Below, one piece after another: positions 5,875-48,611 of a stretch of DNA of 64,000 nucleotides. Below the pieces are notes generated by a model that searched no databases, had not been told where the DNA came from, and saw only the letters and a program-made list of their open reading frames with translations. The stretch covers positions 6,156 to 70,155 of the forward strand of contig CAWKAG010000012.1 in the NCBI GenBank assembly GCA_963847455.1, in the 5' to 3' direction. Numbering within the stretch: position 1 is the first letter of the stretch; each line of letters begins with the position of its first letter. This DNA comes from an uncultured Acidimicrobiia bacterium (lineage in GTDB: Bacteria > Actinomycetota > Acidimicrobiia > Spongiisociales > JAENVV01). The translations under genes were made by a program, and so were the position numbers.

Positions 5875-8049
5875 CTAGTTCTCTGGAAAGATGTGCGTTT
5901 TTTTGGGCAGTCGGTAACTTTCGAGGGAGGACCGTTGCCCGATAGCTATCTCGAGCGGGCGGCCAACAATGCCTGCCAGCAGCCGTTCGGCCGCCGCCTG
6001 GTCTGATTGGTCATGACGGTCGCCGTACGCTTCCCTGGTGATCGCTTCTCCGACTTGGCGCAGTCGCTCATCGGGAAGGGGACCGCTCATGAGCGCGCCG
6101 ACGTATTCGCGCACTGTTTCGTGGGGCTGGCGAGGGCGATCTCGGACCGCCCCATTGTGCTCCAGGTTCTCGGTCATGCACTCGACCCAGGTTCGACGGG
6201 CTTTCCGTCGCCGCTCGCCAATGATTCGGCCCGTCACGGATAGCAGCATGCCCCCAAAACCTCCGACGAGGACGACAGCCAGCGTGATGCCGAGACCGCG
6301 CCCGACCAACCCGGCGTTCTCACGAGCCCAGGCGGCTACCACTGCCCCGGCGTTGGCTGGTGGATCAAACTCCCCGGCCAGGGGAACCTGCGCAGTTGGG
6401 TCGAAGCCTTGCCATCCAATCCCGGGGAAGTAGACCTCCGCCCAGGAGTGAGCATCCGAGGCGCGGACTTCGTATAGGCCGGTGAGTGAGTTGCGTTCAC
6501 CTGGGATGAACCCGACCGCCAGGCGACTCGGCACGCCAAGCGACCGCAGCATGACGACCAGGCTCGTGCCGATCTGCTCGCAGAAGCCTTGACGGGTCTC
6601 AAATAGGTATTCGTCGACCGAATCAGCTCCCTCGGGCAGCGGAGGGATGTCCAAGCTGTAGGTAGTGTTCTGGGCCATCCAAGCTTCGAGCGCCTTGATC
6701 TTGTCATAGGTGGTGGGGGCGTCGGTGGTGACCTCGCGAGCCAGATCGAGAACTCGCTCGGGCACGTCGTCGGGGAGTTGGAGGAACGGGTCCAGGGAGA
6801 CGGGGAGGTCGCTTCGCAGAGGGTCGCTGACCGTTAGGAGGGCTTCGGTCACGTGGGGCCGCTCGCTGATCACGGTATAGACCGCACCTCTCCCGAGGTC
6901 TGAACCGGCCCGTAGTGCCCCGTCGGGTTGCTGGAATAGGAACCGCGAGTCGAAGTAGACCTCTGAAACCCGGTAGGCGCCGAAAACCAGGTTTGGTCCT
7001 GGTTGTTCAATATAGAAAGTCTGGATGAAGTCGTCGGCCGGCACCGGTGTATCCCCCACCGTGAGTGGAACCTGGATCGGGGCGGGACCGCTGAGGGTTG
7101 CCGACGTGTCATCCGAGGCGGTCCACGTGACTCCGTCCCACACATCAAACGTCTGGCCCCGCCAGAACGCAGGCGCCGACGCACGCACCCGCATGACCAA
7201 CGTGCCGTCAGGCCTTCCCCTGGCAGACGTGTCGAGTTGCTCGGCAAAGCCGAAGTAGCCCGAACTGGCTCCGCTGCCGGACGAGTCCTGTTGATTCTGG
7301 CTGCCCCGGTTGCCAAGAGACGGATTCGACAGCGAGCCGGGGGTACCCAGAGCATTCGATGACGGGAGATTCGCAGGAAACGTAAGTGCTCGCGACGCTC
7401 GCGCACTGGGGAGCGCCAGGAACACTGCGATCGCGATGATGGTGAGAATGCCGACAGCTTTGGCGCCTGCTCTCGCCGCTCCGTCGCCAATCGACGGACC
7501 TCGTTTTCCGAGGGCCGGCAAATCGGTGACCGAGCTGCGATAGGCGAGCAGCAATGAAATCATCAGTCCGCCTGCCCAGAGCAGGATAAAGGCCCCCAAC
7601 GTCGACGAGATCGATAGCGCGGCCGTGATAGCCATCATGGCGGCCGATGACGCCAGAGAAAACATGAGGTCACGACGGGCCGGGACGTGGAGAGAATGGA
7701 TTACCTGGACCCAGAGGAATAGTTCTGCGAGGGGAACTTGAATGTCGACGAGTCCCTCTTGGAACGACGAAACCAGCTCGCCAAAGAAGCCCACGACGGA
7801 CACGACAAGGGCTACGGCCAGGACTGCTTTCAGCTTGAGCGCGTCCGAATGGCGCATTCGATACGAGATTGCGAATCCGACGGGGATGCCGATGATGGCG
7901 ACGAGAGCGGGGGCCGTTCGAACAAATCCCTGCGCGATCAGAGCGACAACCGAAATCATCACGGTTGCTCCAACCGCGGCCCTCACGGAGATGAAGGGTT
8001 CCGGGTCGGTGGCGAGGTTGGCCTCCCGAATGGTGTCAGCCAACTTCAT
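5875..8049 (-). CDS. Transglutaminase-domain membrane protein (TgpA-like)
   Basis: ORF 5875-8367, trimmed to MKLADTIREANL... whose ATG (8047-8049) overlaps the upstream stop as ATGA. It has multiple N-terminal TM helices and a C-terminal transglutaminase core (...GFCEQIGTSLVVMLRSLGVPSRLAVGF...RASDAHSWAEVYFPGIGWQGFDPT). Confidence 0.85.
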   Translation of the reverse strand: MKLADTIREANLATDPEPFISVRAAVGATVMISVVALIAQGFVRTAPALVAIIGIPVGFAISYRMRHSDALKLKAVLAVALVVSVVGFFGELVSSFQEGLVDIQVPLAELFLWVQVIHSLHVPARRDLMFSLASSAAMMAITAALSISSTLGAFILLWAGGLMISLLLAYRSSVTDLPALGKRGPSIGDGAARAGAKAVGILTIIAIAVFLALPSARASRALTFPANLPSSNALGTPGSLSNPSLGNRGSQNQQDSSGSGASSGYFGFAEQLDTSARGRPDGTLVMRVRASAPAFWRGQTFDVWDGVTWTASDDTSATLSGPAPIQVPLTVGDTPVPADDFIQTFYIEQPGPNLVFGAYRVSEVYFDSRFLFQQPDGALRAGSDLGRGAVYTVISERPHVTEALLTVSDPLRSDLPVSLDPFLQLPDDVPERVLDLAREVTTDAPTTYDKIKALEAWMAQNTTYSLDIPPLPEGADSVDEYLFETRQGFCEQIGTSLVVMLRSLGVPSRLAVGFIPGERNSLTGLYEVRASDAHSWAEVYFPGIGWQGFDPTAQVPLAGEFDPPANAGAVVAAWARENAGLVGRGLGITLAVVLVGGFGGMLLSVTGRIIGERRRKARRTWVECMTENLEHNGAVRDRPRQPHETVREYVGALMSGPLPDERLRQVGEAITREAYGDRHDQSDQAAAERLLAGIVGRPLEIAIGQRSSLESYRLPKKTHIFPEN

Positions 8050-9999: not shown

Positions 10000-10878
10000 T
10001 CAGACAGCCGGGATCAAATCGGGGGTCTGGTCCGAAGCGTTGGTCTGGATGATCGAGATCGCTCCGAGAATCATGACTCCGCCGATGATCTGCCCCAAAG
10101 TGAGCTGTTGAGCCAGGTACATCCAGGCAAGAATTGTTGCGACCAATGGCTCCCACGTCGCCGTAAGCCCGATGAGTGGAGCCGGGGCCATACCGAGTGC
10201 TTTGATTTCCAGAGCGAAGGGAAGAATGGTTCCGACCACCACCACTGCGGCCAGCTGCCACCAGCCAGTGCGGGAGATGTCGGTCGGGAAGGTCCAGATC
10301 GGGATAGCCGCAAGCCAGATCAGAGCGGCTACTCCAAATCCGTAGGCCATGATGGCGTATGAGCTCAGGTCCTTGCTGAGTTTCTCGGCCAGAGCCAGGT
10401 AAAACGCGAAGGAGATCGACGAAACGATCCCGGCCGCCAAGCCAGGGAGGTTCAGAGCGGCGCCGCTCCATGCCTGGGCGATCAGCGAAACTCCGATGAG
10501 CGCTGCGGCGGACGCCACCCACGCGGTTGGGGCAACACGATCACCCCGGACCCATCGGTTCCAGGCGAGCAGATAGACGGGTGCAATGAACTGGATTGTG
10601 GCTCCGGGTCCTACACCGATGAGGTCGATTGCCAGGTAGAACGAATAAGTGACCGTCGCGAGTGAGACGCCGAATGCGACGACGATCGGCCAGACTTTCC
10701 CCGGGAACTCTCGCTTCCAGAGCACATACGGCAAAAAGGCCATAGTGCCGCCGAGTGCTCGCACCTGGGCCACGCGCATCACCGGTATTTCGGCGAACAC
10801 GGCTGCTGCCAATGCTCCTGCGAGCCCCCACATCGTTGCGGCGACCAGTGCCAGAATGATGCCCGTACGAACTCGCAT
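10000..10878 (-). CDS. EamA/DMT-family transporter
   Basis: ORF 10000-10980, trimmed to MRVRTGIILALVAATMWGLAG... (ATG 10876-10878). About 10 hydrophobic helices form two EamA-like halves. Confidence 0.8.
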   Translation of the reverse strand: MRVRTGIILALVAATMWGLAGALAAAVFAEIPVMRVAQVRALGGTMAFLPYVLWKREFPGKVWPIVVAFGVSLATVTYSFYLAIDLIGVGPGATIQFIAPVYLLAWNRWVRGDRVAPTAWVASAAALIGVSLIAQAWSGAALNLPGLAAGIVSSISFAFYLALAEKLSKDLSSYAIMAYGFGVAALIWLAAIPIWTFPTDISRTGWWQLAAVVVVGTILPFALEIKALGMAPAPLIGLTATWEPLVATILAWMYLAQQLTLGQIIGGVMILGAISIIQTNASDQTPDLIPAV

Positions 10879-12412: not shown

Positions 12413-14050
12413 TTATGACTTGTGTCGGTAGAACCCGGCCTCCGATGGCGGCAGTGGGTCATTGCCGAGGATCAAGTCCGCGGCCTTTTCCGCCAGCATC
12501 ATGACCGGCGCATAGATGTTGCCGTTGGTGACGTAGGGCATTACCGATGCGTCGACGACGCGTACGCCTTCCACGCCTTTGACCTTCATCGTGAGTGGAT
12601 CGACAACGGCGTCTGGCCCCGTTCCCATTTTCGCCGTGCCGCACGGATGGAGGGCGGTTTCGGCGTCGTGCCGAACCCATTCAAGAATCTCCTCGTCGGT
12701 TGATACCGTGGGGCCTGGGGATAGTTCGCCGCCGTTGAAAGGGTCGAAGGCAGGTTGGGTCAAGATGGACCGGGCGGCACGAACTGCCTCTTTCCACTCG
12801 CGCCGATCCTGGTCGGTCGATAGGTAGTTGAACCGCAAGGCTGGTTTGTCTTTGGGGTCGGTTGATTTGATCTTCACCGACCCGCGCGCATCAGAGAACA
12901 TGGGTCCGATGTGGACCTGGTAGCCGTGGCCCTTGGTTGGCACGGTTCCGTCATACCGGATCGCGATGGGCAGGAAGTGGAACATCAGATTCGGCCACTC
13001 GACCTCGTCGTTGGAACGAATGAAGCCGCCCGCCTCGAAGTGATTGGTTGCCGCCGCCCCCTTGCGTCGGAACAGCCAGTCAAAGCCGATCTTGGGTCGG
13101 CGCCACCAGTCAAGGGCCGGCGACATGGATACGGGTTGGGTGCAGGCGTACTGGATGTATACCTCAAGATGATCTTGCAGGTTTTCGCCAACGCCTGGTA
13201 CGTCGGCAACAACCGGGATCCCCAACTCCTCCAGGTCGGCCGGGTTCCCGATCCCGGACAGTTGCAGGAGTTGCGGCGTATTGATGGACCCCGCCGAGCA
13301 GATAACTTCCCGGGCCGGCGCGAAGTGCTGTTTGCCGGCCTTGGTGTACTCGACGCCAACGGCGGTCGTACCCTCAAAACGGATCTTCGTGGTCATGGCC
13401 CTGGTGACGATGGTCAGGTTGGGTCGGTCCATCACCGGATGCAGATAAGCCCGGGCTGCTGAAAGCCTGCGACCACGGTGGATGTTGCGATCGAACCTCG
13501 CAAAGCCCTCCTGCCGGTAACCGTTGACGTCATCCGTCAGTGGATACCCGGCTTGAACTACCGCATCGAAGAAGGCATCGAACAGGGGGTTGACTGCCGG
13601 GCCGCGTTCCATCGCGAGGGGACCGTCGTCGCCGCGCCAGTCGTCGCCGCCTGCCAGGCAGTTTTCCATCCGCTTGAAGTAGGGAAGGCAGTGGGAGTAG
13701 TCCCAGCTCTCCATGCCCGGGTCGGCCGCCCATCGCTCGTAGTCCATCGCGTTGCCACGTTGAAAGATCATCCCGTTGATGCTGCTCGATCCGCCCAGCA
13801 CCTTGCCGCGGGCGTGATAGACACGGCGGCCGCCCATCTCCGGTTCGGGTTCGGACTCGTACTTCCAGTCATACAGTCGGTTGCCGATCGGGATTGAGAA
13901 GGCTCCCGGCATGTGGATAAAGATGTCCCACTTACGATCCGGACGTCCAGCTTCAAGGACGAGTACCTGGTGGTCCGGGTTGGCGCTCAGTCGATTGGCA
14001 AGCGCCGACCCGGCCGAACCGCCGCCGACAATCACATAGTCATAGGTCAT
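12413..14050 (-). CDS. GMC-family FAD oxidoreductase (choline dehydrogenase-like)
   Basis: N-terminal [22 protein letters not shown] (GxGxxG), [11 protein letters not shown], and a C-terminal GMC signature region (...HPCGTAKMG...VVDASVMP). It is convergent with the ALDH at 10958-12394. Confidence 0.9.
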
Positions 14051-16863: not shown

Positions 16864-18291
16864 TTAGGCGTTCGCCCCGAAGATCGACTTGACCTCGAGG
16901 AACTCCTCGAAGCCATGCTCGCCCCACTCGCGGCCATTGCCGGACTGTTTGTAGCCGCCGAACGGCGCATTCGGGTCGCCTAGGGCTCCGTTCACGTGAA
17001 CCATTCCGGTCCGGATCTGGCGGGCAACCCTGCGAGCCCGGTCCTGGTCGCCCGACGACACATAGCCGGACAACCCGTACTGGGTGTCGTTGGCGATGCG
17101 AATCGCATCAGCTTCGTCCTCGTAGCCGATGATGGAGACGACAGGGCCGAAGATCTCCTCCCGGGCAATGGTCATGTCGTTCGTCACGTTGGCAAACACG
17201 GTTGGCTTGATGAAGTAGCCGCGATCGTGGCCCTCGGCACGGCCCGTGCCACCGGTCACGAGTTCGGCACCTTCGGCGATGCCCGTTTCGATCAATGCCT
17301 GGATCTTGTTGTATTGCGCCTCGGAAACCACCGGACCGATCGCCGTGGCCTCGTCGCCGGGATGGCCAACCACGATGTTTTCTGCCGCTGCTTTGGCGTA
17401 GCCGGCAGCTTCGGCCATCCGGGCCTGCGGCACGAGGATCCTCGTTCCGGCATTGCACGACTGACCCGAGTTACGGCACATACCCTTGACGTCACGGGCA
17501 ATGACAGCTCCCAGGTCGGCGTCGTCGAGGACGATATTTGCCGACTTGCCCCCGAGTTCCTGGGCAACTCGCTTCACCGTCGGAGCCGCGTTCTTGGCGA
17601 CTTCGACACCGGCGCGGGTGGAGCCAGTGAACGAAACCATGTCGACCTCAGGATGCGAAGAGAGTGGAACCCCGACGTTGATTCCGTCGCCCTGGATGAG
17701 GTTGAAGACCCCGGCCGGCACACCGGCTTCGTCGAGGATCTCGGCGAAGATGATGGCGTTCAAGGGAGCCAGTTCCGAAGGTTTCAGGACCATCGTGCAG
17801 CCTGCCGCCAGGGCCGGTGCGACCTTCGTAGCGATCTGGTTGAGCGGCCAGTTCCACGGTGTGATCAAGGCACAAACCCCGACCGGTTCTTTGACCACGA
17901 GCGTCGTGCCGATCTCCTCTTCGAACTCATAGCTCTCGAGTACCCGGCGCACGGTCTTGAAGTGGTTCAAACCAGACGGCACTTGAGCCCGCGATGAAAG
18001 GGAAAACGGTGCGCCCATCTCGTCGCTGACCGCCGAGATGAGGTCATCCATGCGGGTCTTGTACACCGAGATTATTGAATCGAGGAGCTCCATGCGCTCC
18101 TCCCGGGTGGTCTCTCCATAGGTTGCGAAAGCGGCTCTGGCTGCGGTGACCGCTGCGTCGACGTCGGCCGGTCCGCCCATGGCGATGGTGGTGAGGACCT
18201 CTTCCGTCGCCGGGTTGATGACTTCGAGGGTTGTCGTGGCCGAGGGCGCCACCCACTGGCCATTGATGTAGAACTCGTGTTTGTGCTGCAT
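16864..18291 (-). CDS. NAD(P)-dependent aldehyde dehydrogenase
   Basis: ORF 16864-18519, trimmed to MQHKHEFYINGQWVAP (ATG 18289-18291). The upstream extension is just the translated intergenic repeat. Motifs: FTGSTRAG, ELGGKSANIV, catalytic Cys in GQSCNAGTRILV, EEIFGPV. Confidence 0.9.
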   Translation of the reverse strand: MQHKHEFYINGQWVAPSATTTLEVINPATEEVLTTIAMGGPADVDAAVTAARAAFATYGETTREERMELLDSIISVYKTRMDDLISAVSDEMGAPFSLSSRAQVPSGLNHFKTVRRVLESYEFEEEIGTTLVVKEPVGVCALITPWNWPLNQIATKVAPALAAGCTMVLKPSELAPLNAIIFAEILDEAGVPAGVFNLIQGDGINVGVPLSSHPEVDMVSFTGSTRAGVEVAKNAAPTVKRVAQELGGKSANIVLDDADLGAVIARDVKGMCRNSGQSCNAGTRILVPQARMAEAAGYAKAAAENIVVGHPGDEATAIGPVVSEAQYNKIQALIETGIAEGAELVTGGTGRAEGHDRGYFIKPTVFANVTNDMTIAREEIFGPVVSIIGYEDEADAIRIANDTQYGLSGYVSSGDQDRARRVARQIRTGMVHVNGALGDPNAPFGGYKQSGNGREWGEHGFEEFLEVKSIFGANA

Positions 18292-18342
18292 ATCCGGAAT
18301 CGTAGCGTCAAGTTGACCGCTCAGTTCCCCCCTTTTCACGGG

Positions 18343-18461
18343 ACGAGTGTGCTTACGGTTCGCTATATCGAGCCTGGATGCACACTCGTTGGGAACCGTC
18401 CGGGACCGAACCAGACGAGTGTGCTTACGGTTCGCTATATCGAGCCTGGATGCACACTCGT
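18343..18461 (-). repeat. Tandem pair of identical 47-nt hairpin-ended intergenic elements (18343-18389, 18415-18461)
   Basis: Two identical copies of acgagtgtgcttacggttcgctatatcgagcctggatgcacactcgt, with a 72-nt period. Each is bounded by the perfect 10-bp inverted repeat ACGAGTGTGC/GCACACTCGT. The same family occurs at 46899-47005. Confidence 0.9.
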
Positions 18462-18473
18462 CGCAGAAGGGGG

Positions 18474-18791
18474 TTACTTCTTGTTGGCGTTGGCTACCGC
18501 GACTGCACGTCTTGCCCAAGACAGGAGTTCCGCAGGGTCACCCATGACGCCTGAGGGAACCAACCAGTAAGGCATGCCGTGCTTATGTGATCCGGCGGCC
18601 TCGAAGATCGCGTCCGTGGTCTCGTCCGACCTGAGAAAGACGGCGCCTTGTTTGTCGATGATTGTGAACATCACCCCATCGCAGAAGAGTCCGATGCCTC
18701 CGAACATGCGCTTGAACGTCACCTGCCCGAGCGGAGTCCATTCCTCAGTGAGTACGTCGGCAACTTCGGCAGGAGTTCCAGCAATGCGCAT
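18474..18791 (-). CDS. TfoX N-terminal domain protein
   Basis: FKRMFGGIGLFCDGVMFTIIDKQGAVFLR and ...MPYWLVP... match the TfoX_N pattern. Confidence 0.8.
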   Translation of the reverse strand: MRIAGTPAEVADVLTEEWTPLGQVTFKRMFGGIGLFCDGVMFTIIDKQGAVFLRSDETTDAIFEAAGSHKHGMPYWLVPSGVMGDPAELLSWARRAVAVANANKK

Positions 18792-18795
18792 GCCA

Positions 18796-19620
18796 TTACT
18801 CTACGGTTTTGCGATACGACCGGACCGCGAACGGTGCCGCCACCGCAACGATCCCGACTATCCAGGCCAGGGAGAGGAGTACCAGCGATCCGATTGTCGC
18901 TCCGCTGGCGGCGAGGTGTGGTTCTCCGGCAATGTAGGCGTCGCCAAGGATCAGTGCTCTGGCGGTGTTGGCGAGAACCGTCACCGGCTGGTTTTCAGCA
19001 AACGAGGCCAGCCACGACGGCATCGTCGACGTCGGGACGAAGACTGAACTAGCAAATACCAACGGAAAAATCGGCAAGAAGCCGGCTGTTTGAGCGGCTT
19101 CGGGCGTCTTTACCTTCAGACCTACCCAGGCCATGACCCATGACATCGAGTATCCGAAACCGAGGGCGAGCACGACGGCGAGCACCAGAGAGAAGAACCC
19201 GTTGAGCGGACGAAACCCGATCAGGTAGCCAACTGCGGTCATCAGGCTTATGACGAATGCCGCTCGACCTACGTCGGCGAACGTCCGTCCGGCCAAAACT
19301 GCCGATCGTGCCATCGGTAGCGACCGGAAGCGGTCGATAACCCCGGCTTGGAGGTCTTCGGTGAGCCCGACGGCGGTCGCCGTAGCCGCGAATACAACGT
19401 TCTGGACGATGATCCCGGGTAACAAGTAATTGATGTAGTCACCGAAAATCGGAGGAATGGACCGGGCGATTGAGCCTCCGAAGACGTAGTTGAACAACAG
19501 CAGGAACATGACGGGCTGAACCGTCGAGAACAACAACAGTTGTGGGAGTCGGATGTTTCGGAGCAGGTTACGGCGGGTGATGATTCCAACGTGGCTGGCG
19601 GTTTGTGAGAGGGTGGTCAT
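18796..19620 (-). CDS. ABC-2 type transporter permease
   Basis: Six hydrophobic helices and a DrrB/ABC-2-like organisation. The ATG overlaps the ATPase stop as ATGA. Confidence 0.85.
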   Translation of the reverse strand: MTTLSQTASHVGIITRRNLLRNIRLPQLLLFSTVQPVMFLLLFNYVFGGSIARSIPPIFGDYINYLLPGIIVQNVVFAATATAVGLTEDLQAGVIDRFRSLPMARSAVLAGRTFADVGRAAFVISLMTAVGYLIGFRPLNGFFSLVLAVVLALGFGYSMSWVMAWVGLKVKTPEAAQTAGFLPIFPLVFASSVFVPTSTMPSWLASFAENQPVTVLANTARALILGDAYIAGEPHLAASGATIGSLVLLSLAWIVGIVAVAAPFAVRSYRKTVE

Positions 19621-45443: not shown

Positions 45444-46262
45444 TTACGGGCAGAGTCCGATATCGGTGATGCCTCGACCGCACATCTCTTGCTGTTCAAT
45501 GCTCTTGAGCGTGAACCCGTCCGATGAAGGCGTGCCGAAGATGTGCAAGCGAATACCGAACAACGCGTCGTCTCCGAGTCCGACGACGTCGATGGTGATT
45601 TCTCCGAGATCGCCCTCCGAGGGAGCGACCGTGACCGTAACGCGGGACGGCGGATCCTCGGACTTGGCTACCTCAGCCACGAGCATGCCGAGTTCGAGCA
45701 TGGTTGCCGCGCTTGGCGTAGTCCCGCCGAAACCGTTCGCTATGTACCGAGCAGTGGCGTCGTCGACAGTCCCGAGGTAGGCCATGAACGATGAGTTCGC
45801 CCATCCGGTTCTGCCGTCAACCACGATCTCGTTCCATATCGACCGGGTCAAGAGGCGGTGCCGTCCCGTTGCGACTATCTGGTCGAAGAGCGGATCGAGC
45901 GTAGCGACGATTGGCTGGTTCGTCCCAGGTCCGGATCGGACGTTCAGTACATCGTCAAAGGCGACGCCGACGACCCCCAGCACGTCACCTTCCGCTGGCC
46001 CAAGGTCGAAGGGCTCGCCTGCCAGCGTCGTACTCGTAGTGGTCGCCGCGATCGTGGTGGTGGTCGTAGTTGTCGTGGCGACGGTTGTTGAGGTCAATGG
46101 CTCTGGGATCGTCGTCGTACCCACCGACGTCGCTGGGGATAGAGGTGTCGATGTGGTCGTCGATTCGATCCCAGGGGTCGGCGTGACGGTTGTGGATGGC
46201 GACGCATCTGAGCAGGCGAAGGCCGTAAAAGTGAGTACGGCAAGCACGGTGGTTCGATACAT
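45444..46262 (-). CDS. Secreted/lipoprotein-type protein with Thr-rich linker and SH3b-like domain
   Basis: The signal reads MYRTTVLAVLTFTAFACSD. It is followed by a poly-Thr tract and then VLNVRSGPGTNQPIVATL...VVDGRTGWANSSFMAYL, a bacterial SH3 pattern. The RBS GGAGGG is present. Confidence 0.6.
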   Translation of the reverse strand: MYRTTVLAVLTFTAFACSDASPSTTVTPTPGIESTTTSTPLSPATSVGTTTIPEPLTSTTVATTTTTTTTIAATTTSTTLAGEPFDLGPAEGDVLGVVGVAFDDVLNVRSGPGTNQPIVATLDPLFDQIVATGRHRLLTRSIWNEIVVDGRTGWANSSFMAYLGTVDDATARYIANGFGGTTPSAATMLELGMLVAEVAKSEDPPSRVTVTVAPSEGDLGEITIDVVGLGDDALFGIRLHIFGTPSSDGFTLKSIEQQEMCGRGITDIGLCP

Positions 46263-46364
46263 AAGTCGCCCTCCTGGTGGACGCTTCTATCTAGTTCCTA
46301 ACCCGGAGCGTACGCCCTGAACGTGGGTTATTCAGGCGATTCGATTGCCATCTTCTTCGAGGTG

Positions 46365-46387
46365 TGTAATGATGTAATACATATTAC
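46365..46387 (+). promoter_or_regulatory. AT-rich repeat/palindrome upstream of 46406 gene (candidate operator or -10 region)
   Basis: TGTAAT-ga-TGTAAT-aca-TATTAC, which includes the perfect palindrome GTAATA-ca-TATTAC (46374-46387). It lies 19 nt upstream of the ATG and just before the RBS GAAGGAG. Confidence 0.35.
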
Positions 46388-46405
46388 GACTTCGAAGGAG
46401 CAGCA

Positions 46406-46894
46406 ATGAACGACGTAAAAGCCTGGTTTGTTGGACGACTTCCTGAGGACTGGTTCGAAGACTTCACGATTACCGGTGATCGCGACGAGATCGTGGTGAT
46501 GGGTCGTTTGGCGCCGCCGGCGGCAGGCGATCTCGACGGTGATCAGATGGCCGTCGCCGAACGCAGCCGGATTGATGGATTCCGTGAAGACACGCGATCG
46601 CAACGCATGAAGATCGCCGATCAAGCCCAGCGGACCTTTGAGCGGAAGGTCTCCTGGGGCGCGAGTTGTGGTGACACTCAGGTGCTCTTCACTCACCTGG
46701 CCGTTCCGGCCATGACGAGGCTCCGGCTCAAAGAGCGGGCGTTGCTCGATACGCTCATTGACGGCGGCGTGGCACGGAGTCGCAGCGAGGCTCTGGCCTG
46801 GTGTGTACAGCTCGTCGGTCAGCACGAAGCCGATTGGCTGGCAGATCTTCGTGAGGCATTGGCGAACGTAGAGGCAGTCCGCGACCGCCAATAG
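46406..46894 (+). CDS. Hypothetical protein with C-terminal ribbon-helix-helix-like domain
   Basis: 162 aa. The C-terminal MTRLRLKERALLDTLIDGGVARSRSEALAWCVQLV shows a strand-helix-helix pattern. The N-terminal about 100 aa is unassigned. Confidence 0.6.
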   Translation: MNDVKAWFVGRLPEDWFEDFTITGDRDEIVVMGRLAPPAAGDLDGDQMAVAERSRIDGFREDTRSQRMKIADQAQRTFERKVSWGASCGDTQVLFTHLAVPAMTRLRLKERALLDTLIDGGVARSRSEALAWCVQLVGQHEADWLADLREALANVEAVRDRQ

Positions 46895-47006
46895 CCGGAC
46901 GAGTGTGCATCCAGGTCGAGTATTCCGAACCGTAAGCACACTCGTTTCCAACGCCCGGACGAGTGTGCATCCAGGTCGAGTATTCCGAACCGTAAGCACA
47001 CTCGTT
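46895..47006 (+). repeat. Tandem pair of identical 47-nt hairpin-ended intergenic elements (46899-46945, 46959-47005)
   Basis: Two identical copies of acgagtgtgcatccaggtcgagtattccgaaccgtaagcacactcgt, each preceded by ccgg, with a 60-nt period. The terminal 10-bp inverted repeat is the same as at 18343-18461. The array starts 5 nt after the stop at 46894 and ends 31 nt before ATG 47037. Confidence 0.9.
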
Positions 47007-47036
47007 CAGGAAATGGGGGTGGGGTAGTCTCGGACC

Positions 47037-48611
47037 ATGGCGACGTACGACTTCATCATTGTTGGGGCCGGCTCGGCCGGTTCGGTTCTCGCCAATCGGC
47101 TCTCGGTCGATCCAGATATCCGGGTGCTCGTTCTCGAGGCGGGCGGCTCGAACAAACACATCAATGTCGATACGCCGGCCGCCTTCTCGAAGCTTTTCCA
47201 AACCAAGCGGGACTGGAACTACTTCACCCAACCCGAGCCGGATGCCGACGACCGGCAGCTCTATCTGCCGCGCGGCAAGATGCTCGGGGGAAGCTCTTCT
47301 ATGAACGCCATGATCTATATCCGGGGCAATCGGATCGACTACGACGGATGGGCAGCCGACGGATGTAAGGGGTGGTCGTACGAAGAGGTTCTCCCGTACT
47401 TCAAGAAGTCCGAGCACAACGAACGCGGAGCGGACACGTTTCACGGGGTGGATGGCCCGCTCAATGTGGCCGACCAGCGATCGATCAATGAACTGTCCCG
47501 GGCGTTTGTTGAAGCGGCGGTCGAGCGCGGATATCCCCGTAATCGTGACTTCAACGGAGCCGACCAGGTGGGGGTGGGTCCGTACCAGGTCACCCAGAAA
47601 AAGGGCGCCCGGTGGAGTACCGCTGACGCCTATCTCGGGCCAGCGATGGGTCGTTCGAACCTGACGATCTGCTCGGATGCGCATGCCCACCGGATCGTTA
47701 TTGAGCAGGGTCGAGCGGTGGGGGTGGAGTATCGACAGGACGGCGAGGTGAAAACCGCCCGGGCGGATGGCGAGGTCATCGTTTCTGGTGGGGCTTACAA
47801 CTCGCCGCACTTGCTCATGTTGTCGGGAATCGGGCCAGCGGAGCATCTGTCCGAGTTTGGTATCGACGTAGCCGTCGACAACCCCAACGTTGGTGACCAT
47901 CTGCAAGATCATCCGGTCATCATGAACACCTTCCACGTTCACAAGAAGGTGAGCTTGGCCCACGCCGAAAAGCCGGCCCGGCTGGCTGAGTATCTTCTCT
48001 TCAAGAAGGGCATGTTGTCGTCGAACGTCGGCGAAGCGGGTGGTTTCATTCATACCCGCGACGGGCTGGACGGCCCGGATATCCAGTTCCACTTCGCGCC
48101 GGGTTATTTCAATCGGCACGGGTTCGACGTGATCGATGGAGACGCCATGACCGTTGGGCCGACGCTTGTTGCGCCAAAGAGCCGTGGCCACATTCGGCTG
48201 CGCAGCACCAACCCGGAGGTCCACCCGGACATTCTCACGCGGGCGCTGAGCCATCCCGACGATGTCCAATCGCTGGTCGATGGCCTCAAGGTCACGAGAG
48301 ATATTGCCCACTCGAAGGTCTTCGATGAATACCAGGGTGGAGAACTGCACCCCGGCGACGACGCCAAGACCGATGATGAGTTGGTCGAATACATCCGACG
48401 AAAAGCGGAGTTGCTCTATCACCCGTCCGGAACGGCACGCATGGGGACGGACCCCGCTTCTGCAGTGGTTGATCCGAAGTTGCGGGTGTTCGGCGTTGAG
48501 GGCCTGCGAGTCGTCGACGCATCGATCATGCCGACCGTGGTGCGTGGCAACACGAATGCTCCGACCATCATGATCGCCGAGAAGGCGGCCGACCTGATTC
48601 TTAGTGACTGA
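47037..48611 (+). CDS. GMC-family FAD oxidoreductase (choline dehydrogenase-like)
   Basis: MATYDFIIVGAGSAGSVLANRLS, GGSSSMNAMIY, and the C-terminal HPSGTARMG...VVDASIMP. Confidence 0.9.
   Translation: MATYDFIIVGAGSAGSVLANRLSVDPDIRVLVLEAGGSNKHINVDTPAAFSKLFQTKRDWNYFTQPEPDADDRQLYLPRGKMLGGSSSMNAMIYIRGNRIDYDGWAADGCKGWSYEEVLPYFKKSEHNERGADTFHGVDGPLNVADQRSINELSRAFVEAAVERGYPRNRDFNGADQVGVGPYQVTQKKGARWSTADAYLGPAMGRSNLTICSDAHAHRIVIEQGRAVGVEYRQDGEVKTARADGEVIVSGGAYNSPHLLMLSGIGPAEHLSEFGIDVAVDNPNVGDHLQDHPVIMNTFHVHKKVSLAHAEKPARLAEYLLFKKGMLSSNVGEAGGFIHTRDGLDGPDIQFHFAPGYFNRHGFDVIDGDAMTVGPTLVAPKSRGHIRLRSTNPEVHPDILTRALSHPDDVQSLVDGLKVTRDIAHSKVFDEYQGGELHPGDDAKTDDELVEYIRRKAELLYHPSGTARMGTDPASAVVDPKLRVFGVEGLRVVDASIMPTVVRGNTNAPTIMIAEKAADLILSD

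Follow-up and report, generated by a model that had tools for sequence, protein, structure and literature searches.

Why do two pairs of identical hairpins stand just upstream of two oxidoreductase genes in an uncultured Acidimicrobiia bacterium? In the stretch of its DNA that we analyzed (64,000 nt of contig CAWKAG010000012.1, referred to throughout as the window), one tandem pair of a 47-nt unit, locus B, ends shortly before a GMC oxidoreductase gene, and a second pair, locus A, ends shortly before an aldehyde dehydrogenase gene. A first-pass annotation of the window had left two readings side by side, namely a common cis-regulatory element coordinating the two enzyme genes, or a small structured intergenic repeat family with a positional preference. 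We conclude, with a probability of about 0.8, that the units form a new dispersed intergenic hairpin repeat family of an uncultured Acidimicrobiia clade, one that resembles the repetitive extragenic palindromic (REP) sequences and varies locally in copy number in the manner of the mycobacterial interspersed repetitive units (MIRU). The element is real but of an ordinary kind: the family is new, whereas the class of bacterial repeats to which it belongs is known.

Four units in the window

The window contains four 47-nt units, two on the plus strand (locus B) and two on the minus strand (locus A). At locus B they have the form ACGAGTGTGCATCCAGG-TCGAGTATTCC-GAACCGTAAGCACACTCGT, at 46899-46945 and 46959-47005 with a period of 60 nt, and at locus A the form ACGAGTGTGCATCCAGG-CTCGATATAGC-GAACCGTAAGCACACTCGT, at 18461-18415 and 18389-18343 with a period of 72 nt. 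Our re-reading of the sequence agrees with the first-pass annotation that each locus holds two identical units, that the arms are the same in all four and that the central 11 nt differ between loci A and B. Each arm pattern matches four times in the window, against shuffle expectations of 0.25 and 0.00. A covariance-model search of the window recovered the four known units and nothing else; the 8-9-mer half-sites that occur in isolation at 10120/10161, 27923 and 43805 are not degenerate copies but coding sequence or chance matches. The units, spacers and flanks are as follows.

46899..46945, plus strand: unit B1, with loop variant 2 (GGTCGAGTATTCCGAACC); predicted fold -22.3 kcal/mol, covariance-model score 67 bits
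46946..46958, plus strand: 13-nt spacer between B1 and B2 (TTCCAACGCCCGG), a copy, since diverged, of the last nucleotides of the upstream gene, produced by the 60-nt tandem duplication
46959..47005, plus strand: unit B2, the same as B1; covariance-model score 66.3 bits
47006..47024, plus strand: G-rich 3' flank of locus B (TCAGGAAATGGGGGTGGGG), generic to the arrays of the family and kept in the orthologous locus L020
18415..18461, minus strand: unit A1, with loop variant 1 (GGCTCGATATAGCGAACC); predicted fold -21.4 kcal/mol, covariance-model score 78.9 bits
18390..18414, minus strand: 25-nt spacer between A1 and A2, without similarity to the outer flanks
18343..18389, minus strand: unit A2, the same as A1; covariance-model score 78.1 bits
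18462..18473, minus strand: C-rich 5' flank of locus A (CCCCCTTCTGCG), which adjoins the TAA stop codon of the TfoX_N gene and can pair with the G-rich 3' flank
18322..18342, minus strand: G-rich 3' flank of locus A (CCCGTGAAAAGGGGGGAACTG)

In the predicted fold of a unit, ten uninterrupted base pairs make up the outer stem; an asymmetric internal loop (AUCCA / GUAA) separates it from a short inner stem, imperfectly paired, that closes a loop of 6-7 nt. As RNA the window units have fold energies of -21 to -22 kcal/mol (z about -5), and as DNA their predicted fold lies between -12 and -15 kcal/mol. The complement folds at least as well, since the locus B unit gives -24.3 kcal/mol when read as RNA from the minus strand and -22.3 kcal/mol from the plus strand. 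The 60-nt repeat of locus B is a tandem duplication (46888-46946 against 46948-47006, 95% identical) that takes in the last 11 nt of the upstream gene, and at locus A there is no flanking similarity between units A1 and A2.

The unit across genomes and at orthologous sites

We scanned one genome per species, 185,579 species in all, with the exact pattern TGCATCCAGGN{6,24}AACCGTAAGCA, which covers the inner part of the unit only. The scan returned 31 loci, 25 of them in three Acidimicrobiia metagenome-assembled genomes (MAGs); the remaining six lie in other phyla, mostly have other gap lengths, lack the outer stem and are about as numerous as expected by chance. The outer-stem bases, which this pattern leaves free, were nearly invariant. 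About 23 arrays with at least 38 units are present in the fragmentary MAG JAOUMT01, and a metagenome scan yielded further copies of the repeat, and a scan of a viral-contig collection yielded no copy. A covariance model built from 26 distinct units detected, in the genome loci, 47 units scoring 64-82 bits, and its search of the window and the fetched loci (designated by L numbers below) revealed no degenerate copies. Arrays consist of one, two or three units arranged head-to-tail with periods of about 60 or 71-73 nt. Over the unit alignment the mean column identity is 89%, and 32 of 53 columns are invariant, 21 of these being fixed by the scan pattern itself. A nearly invariant 10-bp stem (ACGAGTGTGC / GCACACTCGT), the conserved unpaired stretches ATCCA(GG) and (GAACC)GTAA and a freely evolving center make up the common anatomy. 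No Rfam family matches the units: at gathering thresholds the whole window gave no match, and a search of 46860-47045 with E up to 10 gave only generic miRNA-precursor hairpins and Guanidine-III, whose 11.5 bits fall short of the gathering score of 36. A literature search for the unit sequence found no paper.

Genes around the arrays were called by a codon-position GC heuristic, and the critical cases (the window and six other loci) were checked with Pfam. All 38 of the 38 arrays examined lie between called genes and none in coding sequence, mostly a few to tens of nt past stop codons in co-directional or convergent gaps. Where both neighbors were resolved, nine arrays are antisense to co-directional genes, seven are sense to them (five by the heuristic and the two window loci by Pfam), five are in convergent gaps and one is in a divergent gap, and the units show no orientation preference relative to genes. 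The neighbors identified by Pfam include BPA (bacterial proteasome activator), Rrf2, an Rv2466c-like nitroreductase, Cys_Met_Meta_PP (a pyridoxal phosphate enzyme), a zinc alcohol dehydrogenase, a cation efflux protein, an MrfA-type helicase and a class II ribonucleotide reductase; an electron-transfer flavoprotein was recognized by reading of the open reading frame (ORF) alone, without a Pfam scan. The repeat-family reading of the first-pass annotation is thus borne out by an element that is multi-copy, strictly intergenic and mostly placed past stops. REP families likewise lie a few to tens of nt beyond stops and are rare in divergent gaps (PMC3733652), and the REP criteria, together with the preference for co-directional and convergent gaps (PMC12306157, PMC3733652), match the placement found here.

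The evolution of the units can be followed at orthologous sites. The window is syntenic with JAOUMT01 contigs across loci A and B at 82-86% identity, and the orthologous sites in JAOUMT01 carry one unit each, at the same position, where the window has two. The arms are identical at both loci; one loop base differs at locus A and three differ at locus B, and the loop variant (1 or 2) is retained at both. Across the approximately 35 kb aligned, the same two loci are present with no gain or loss. The fetched loci also contained orthologous pairs that are more distant. Eleven orthologous unit pairs, with flanks 72-85% identical, gave 0.036 and 0.018 substitutions per site in the two stem arms, all of them at the terminal pair, so that stem positions 2-10 and 38-46 show no change in any pair. 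The corresponding values were 0.013 in ATCCAGG, 0.081 in GAACCGTAA and 0.256 in the central 11 nt. Judged by these substitutions, the center drifts at about the rate of the surrounding DNA, whereas the stem and the 5' unpaired stretch are frozen. The orthologous positions, the unchanged arms and the lack of locus turnover argue against recent spread and for a constraint on the sequence itself, and the best reading is that the family is vertically inherited and constrained at the sequence level.

Unit number, in contrast, varies at orthologous loci, with two in the window versus one in JAOUMT01 and one in L019 versus three in L023. Because the orthologous sites in a relative that is 82-86% identical carry one unit each, the paired identical units of the window are local, recent events (duplication or conversion) and not a functional requirement. 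We also observed that L034 (Ga0265303_10345229) is 98.5% identical to window positions 18342-19311 upstream of and through unit A1, and beyond that unit differs in its spacer and its second unit and then continues into unrelated sequence; this break at the repeat reflects either recombination there or a chimeric assembly.

Structure tests on 62 distinct units found no variation at all in 7 of the 10 outer pairs. The only two-sided change is at the terminal pair (38 A-U, 5 U-A and 19 unpaired), and the inner stem is often broken without compensation, for example in L036. Because the stem is nearly invariant, covariation is uninformative and speaks neither for nor against the fold; the conserved thing is the sequence. 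The hairpins drawn in the first-pass annotation are predicted to fold stably. Most of the rare outer-stem mismatches (L016 4606-4652, L030 2579-2625, L014 5836-5882 and L013 6607-6653) read A.C on the strand of the unit and G.U on its complement, and in two cases the neighboring gene lies on this complementary strand. Such a bias would fit pairing that is kept in a transcript, with too few events to infer which strand is transcribed.

The scan of metagenomes used the outer stem only (ACGAGTGTGCN{26,28}GCACACTCGT) and returned the main family together with other interiors. The same 10-bp stem is extended by ATCCA pairing with TGGAT in L043 (4591-4637), L049, L055, L058 and L072, and L051 has the outer stem with ATCAAT pairing with ATTGAT. 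L033 (3706-3839) has a different interior, in three or more tandem units that repeat every 60 nt. The outer stem thus seems to be what a wider group has in common, and some of the single perfect palindromes among these hits may be due to chance.

The units usually sit between C-rich 5' and G-rich 3' flanks. In the orientation of the unit, the 30 nt to its left are 39% C and the 30 nt to its right 43% G (28 arrays), and complementarity between the flanks is evident at many loci, as for CCCACCCCCT / GGGGGTGGG in L030 and TTCCTGCG / CGCAGGAA in L001. Pairing specific to the locus, which would point to covariation or a palindromic target, was considered and rejected, because flanks from the same locus form a duplex of -19.3 kcal/mol and flanks from different loci one of -19.4 kcal/mol (p = 0.53); the equality of these energies indicates that the flanks are a generic, degenerate outward extension of the palindrome. 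With them the period of a unit is about 72 nt. The spacers measure 13-26 nt and some are common to different loci (L003 and L023) or to the two arrays of L007.

The near-identity of the units could also mean youth and not selection, if they were a currently mobile, purely selfish miniature inverted-repeat transposable element (MITE) or REP doublet forming a hairpin (REPIN), recently spread by a transposase. Copies within a genome are indeed nearly identical with none degenerate, in metagenomes the outer stem also encloses other interiors, as though a single enzyme recognized this stem, the close strain L034 differs downstream of unit A1, and a gene with an endonuclease fold (DUF559) is flanked by arrays in L007. 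What decides against this reading is that sites are orthologous with unchanged arms even where flanks are only 72-86% identical, that no locus was gained or lost over the aligned 35 kb and that loop variants are kept at orthologous loci. The viral-contig scan was empty, no transposase was seen adjoining any copy and the DUF559 gene adjoins arrays at one locus only. There is also no visible target-site duplication beside single units and no visible terminal inverted repeat beyond the hairpin; a MITE was rejected on the first of these grounds and because the flanks, although inverted-complementary, are generic (p = 0.53). We regard recent mobility as improbable. Our inspection for a REP-associated tyrosine transposase (RAYT) or other transposase covered loci with two close arrays and was not a systematic search; none was seen near copies in about 600 kb of fetched loci (2.8-15 kb per hit).

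Two gene arrangements were noted in the same loci. In L007 a gene for a DUF559 / REase_MTES_1575 protein (Vsr-like endonuclease fold; 6477-7448, minus strand) lies between two 2-unit arrays (6317-6435 and 7534-7652) that point in the same direction and resemble each other in their spacers, and at the orthologous locus of another species (L036, 8148-8838) the gene is reduced to its first 137 codons, again between units. We rejected this gene as the mobilizing enzyme, as it is present at L007 only, truncated in L036 and found at no other fetched locus. Inverted units approximately 540 nt apart enclose a small ORF in L045 (463-1090), in L054 (219-866) and in L010 (6157-6203) with L014 (5765-5882); the ORF encodes 83 aa with a hydrophobic segment, and the arrangement is kept in three species with flanks 72-85% identical. 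A RAYT hidden between the inverted units of L045 was likewise rejected, since only the 83-aa ORF is there.

Neighboring genes and possible roles

The genes on either side of the two window loci are listed here.

46406..46894, plus strand: AbmR-family transcription factor gene, 162 aa, upstream of locus B (NCBIfam NF058631, E = 3.6e-68)
47037..48611, plus strand: GMC oxidoreductase of the choline-dehydrogenase subfamily, downstream of locus B (GMC_oxred_N, GMC_oxred_C)
18474..18791, minus strand: TfoX_N-domain protein, upstream of locus A (PF04993, E = 8.6e-22)
16864..18291, minus strand: aldehyde dehydrogenase, downstream of locus A (PF00171, E = 3.4e-159)

We re-measured the gene distances given in the first-pass annotation and found them as described at both loci. 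Unit B1 begins 4 nt past the stop at 46894, and 31 nt separate the end of unit B2 from the ATG at 47037; unit A1 begins 12 nt past the TfoX_N stop codon, and 51 nt separate the end of unit A2 from the ATG at 18291. The protein encoded upstream of locus B had been taken for a ribbon-helix-helix protein, an assignment that we replace: it has no Pfam ribbon-helix-helix match, nor any Pfam hit at all, and instead scores 228 bits against the AbmR equivalog NF058631 (cutoff 160). The downstream GMC protein scores 637 bits against PRK02106 (cutoff 605), and for the aldehyde dehydrogenase the betaine-aldehyde dehydrogenase models score under their cutoffs. A second GMC oxidoreductase (12413-14050, minus strand) is a paralogue of the one at 47037-48611 and has no repeat unit adjoining it; the paralogy is seen as long inverted similarities of 12969-13037 with 48032-48100 and of 12537-12577 with 48492-48532. 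We found no promoter-like site between the locus B units and the GMC start, the sole promoter-like match in 46200-47200 being at 46345-46373, upstream of the abmR-like gene. This position suggests that the locus B units are probably intercistronic and that any termination there is partial.

On the window alone, a shared cis-regulatory element that co-regulates the GMC and aldehyde dehydrogenase genes, as a riboswitch-like 5' untranslated region or an operator for an AbmR- or TfoX-like protein, has some support. Both arrays are sense, just upstream of an oxidoreductase gene and just downstream of a small regulator-type gene, and the unit combines a stable hairpin with a conserved internal-loop sequence. 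The census contradicts this idea. More than 30 other copies lie beside functionally unrelated genes, and about as many are antisense to both neighbors or convergent as are sense and upstream, so that there is no bias of gene class or orientation and the co-orientation with oxidoreductase genes is a coincidence of two loci and not a property of the family. The GMC paralogue at 12413-14050 lacks a unit, the orthologous sites have one unit and not two, no Rfam family is matched, covariation (uninformative in so invariant a stem) was seen at no pair other than the terminal one, and the inner stem is broken without compensation in L036. The known AbmR site, moreover, is made of ATGN5 repeats upstream of abmR itself. 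Coordination of the two enzyme genes, as the first-pass annotation proposed it, is thus not supported, and we consider a cis-regulatory element of this kind very improbable.

AbmR was considered separately as the protein that binds the unit. In Mycobacterium tuberculosis its site consists of four ATGN5 repeats in an AT-rich region upstream of abmR itself (bioRxiv 10.1101/2021.09.03.458936), and because this published site is unlike the unit, AbmR is unlikely to be the binding protein. An AT-rich stretch just upstream of the abmR-like gene of the window (46345-46395; GTGTAATGATGTAATACATATTACG) has ATG and ATTA repeats and resembles the M. tuberculosis AbmR site. The mcr11 gene of M. tuberculosis is upstream of abmR and divergent from it, and not downstream.

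The placement of the units past stop codons raises another possibility, that they are single or tandem factor-independent terminators lacking a U-tract, in which hairpin strength is what counts and sequence similarity is a by-product. Terminators of this type have been attributed to Actinobacteria. Copies lie a few to tens of nt past stops and often between convergent genes, their hairpins are stable on both strands and only one copy is in a divergent (promoter) gap. Terminators, however, need structure and not a fixed sequence, whereas here the stem and the unpaired bases are invariant without compensatory changes, and the units are not followed by a T-run. At locus B the 31 nt between the units and the GMC start hold no promoter-like site, and in L003, L009 and L029 the next gene starts 8-28 nt downstream, so full termination would silence those genes. 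We think it quite improbable that the units are terminators of this type.

We return to the REP-like repeat family and to what its units might do. When transcribed, a unit would be an orientation-independent 3' or intercistronic stem-loop, because either strand folds equally stably and copies follow stops in both orientations. Such a stem-loop could shield the upstream RNA from 3' exonucleases or partly stop transcription, and at locus B it would act between the abmR-like and GMC genes. The unit is probably also a protein recognition site, as the base-level constraint on the stem and internal loop suggests; the need for a hairpin would not by itself explain this constraint. Candidate partners would be a RAYT-like HUH enzyme, a nucleoid protein or an RNA-binding protein. 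A more specific form of this proposal, which we think unlikely though worth stating, is that the 9-bp invariant stem and the two unpaired stretches are the docking site of a dedicated protein of the clade, placed genome-wide at gene ends and used in RNA 3'-end protection or processing or in chromosome organization. Compatible with it are the other interiors carried by the same stem (L033, L043 and L051) and the positions held since the divergence of genomes with flanks about 72% identical. If true, the repeat would be a selected host system and not a passenger, possibly served by an enzyme other than a RAYT.

Several points weigh against a constrained REP-like family. The units have no unpaired GTAG or CGTC tag, their arrays are head-to-tail only with none of the head-to-head or tail-to-tail dimers of the REPIN form, they exceed the usual 20-40 nt at 47 nt, and the fetched loci showed neither a RAYT nor another transposase close to a copy. 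The conservation estimate is partly biased by ascertainment, since the patterns used for fetching fix bases either in the interior of the unit or at its outer ends; the comparison of the window with JAOUMT01 is the least touched by this bias. Concerted evolution by gene conversion, instead of purifying selection, may explain the constant arms, a possibility countered by the loop variants kept at two orthologous loci. A function of the units at the RNA level is something that we infer. Finally, a strong terminator at locus B would cut off the GMC gene, for which no separate promoter-like site was found, so any termination there must be partial.

Beyond the routine description of a repeat, the family shows with unusual clarity how the arms stay frozen at conserved sites where the loop drifts neutrally, and it has an unusual head-to-tail organization. 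It contributes a REP-like element from an actinobacterial class that has been little studied and is a convenient case for asking what maintains such repeats, be it a binding protein, RNA stability or conversion. In practice, tandem hairpins beside enzyme genes in these genomes should not be annotated as riboswitches or operators, the repeats are likely break points in assembly and recombination (as in L034), and the differing numbers of units could help to tell strains apart in metagenomes.

Comparison with known systems

Tandem cis-regulatory RNAs exist, for example the glycine or guanidine-II riboswitches, and the window loci resemble them in having two adjacent similar hairpins with conserved unpaired nucleotides upstream of enzyme genes. 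The units differ from them in having no consistent orientation or gene class, no Rfam match and no informative covariation, and in being singletons at orthologous sites. A clustered regularly interspaced short palindromic repeat (CRISPR) array was rejected because there are only 1-3 units per locus and the 13-26-nt spacers recur between loci.

The closest likeness is to REP sequences. We took the REP definition from PMC12306157 and the tagged REP superfamilies from PMC3733652. By the former, REPs are extragenic, form a stem-loop, are highly similar and occur in many copies per genome (PMC12306157), all of which is true of the units; only in length do they depart, at 47 nt compared with 14-40 nt in E. 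coli (PMC12306157) or 20-40 bp (PMC3733652). REPs and the bacterial interspersed mosaic elements (BIME) that they form are also mostly downstream of genes, sometimes tandem and vertically persistent, as the units are. REPs can be embedded in short GC-rich palindromes (PMC3733652), to which the C-rich and G-rich flanks found here are similar; the GTAG-23 REP of T. roseum, for instance, lies within CCGSSCC..GGSSCGG (PMC3733652). The GTAG and CGTC REPs, however, have an unpaired terminal tag, stems of 5-13 or 8-9 bp and a simple loop (PMC3733652), a design that the units do not match. The unit termini, (A/T)CGAG...CTCG(T/A), pair together and leave no conserved unpaired tetranucleotide, and CTCGTC occurs in some copies only, within the stem. 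In place of the simple loop of tagged REPs the unit has an interior of 27 nt that is structured and partly conserved. In the tagged superfamilies head-to-head dimers dominate and head-to-tail ones are negligible in the CGTC families (PMC3733652), whereas the units are arranged head-to-tail. Actinobacteria are absent from the main text of PMC3733652, and the host here belongs to the Acidimicrobiia.

Like the REPIN-RAYT systems (PMC3116915, PMC3337134, bioRxiv 10.1101/2022.05.22.493013), the family has a dominant master sequence and long vertical persistence, and in both the stem sequence may be the recognition element. REPINs are inverted REP doublets, whereas the units are direct repeats or singletons, the only inverted unit pair being the one approximately 540 nt apart around the small ORF.

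The organization of the arrays recalls instead the MIRU. These are actinobacterial repeats whose units, 40-100 bp long, stand in direct tandem at numerous intergenic loci and vary in copy number between strains; they are co-oriented with the flanking operon, and their short ORFs overlap the neighboring stop and start codons. The units differ from MIRU in being antisense in nine and sense in seven of the co-directional gaps, and in having periods of 60, 71, 72 and 73 nt, of which 71 and 73 are not multiples of three. They share with MIRU the direct tandem units at dispersed intergenic loci and the variable copy number, here one versus two.

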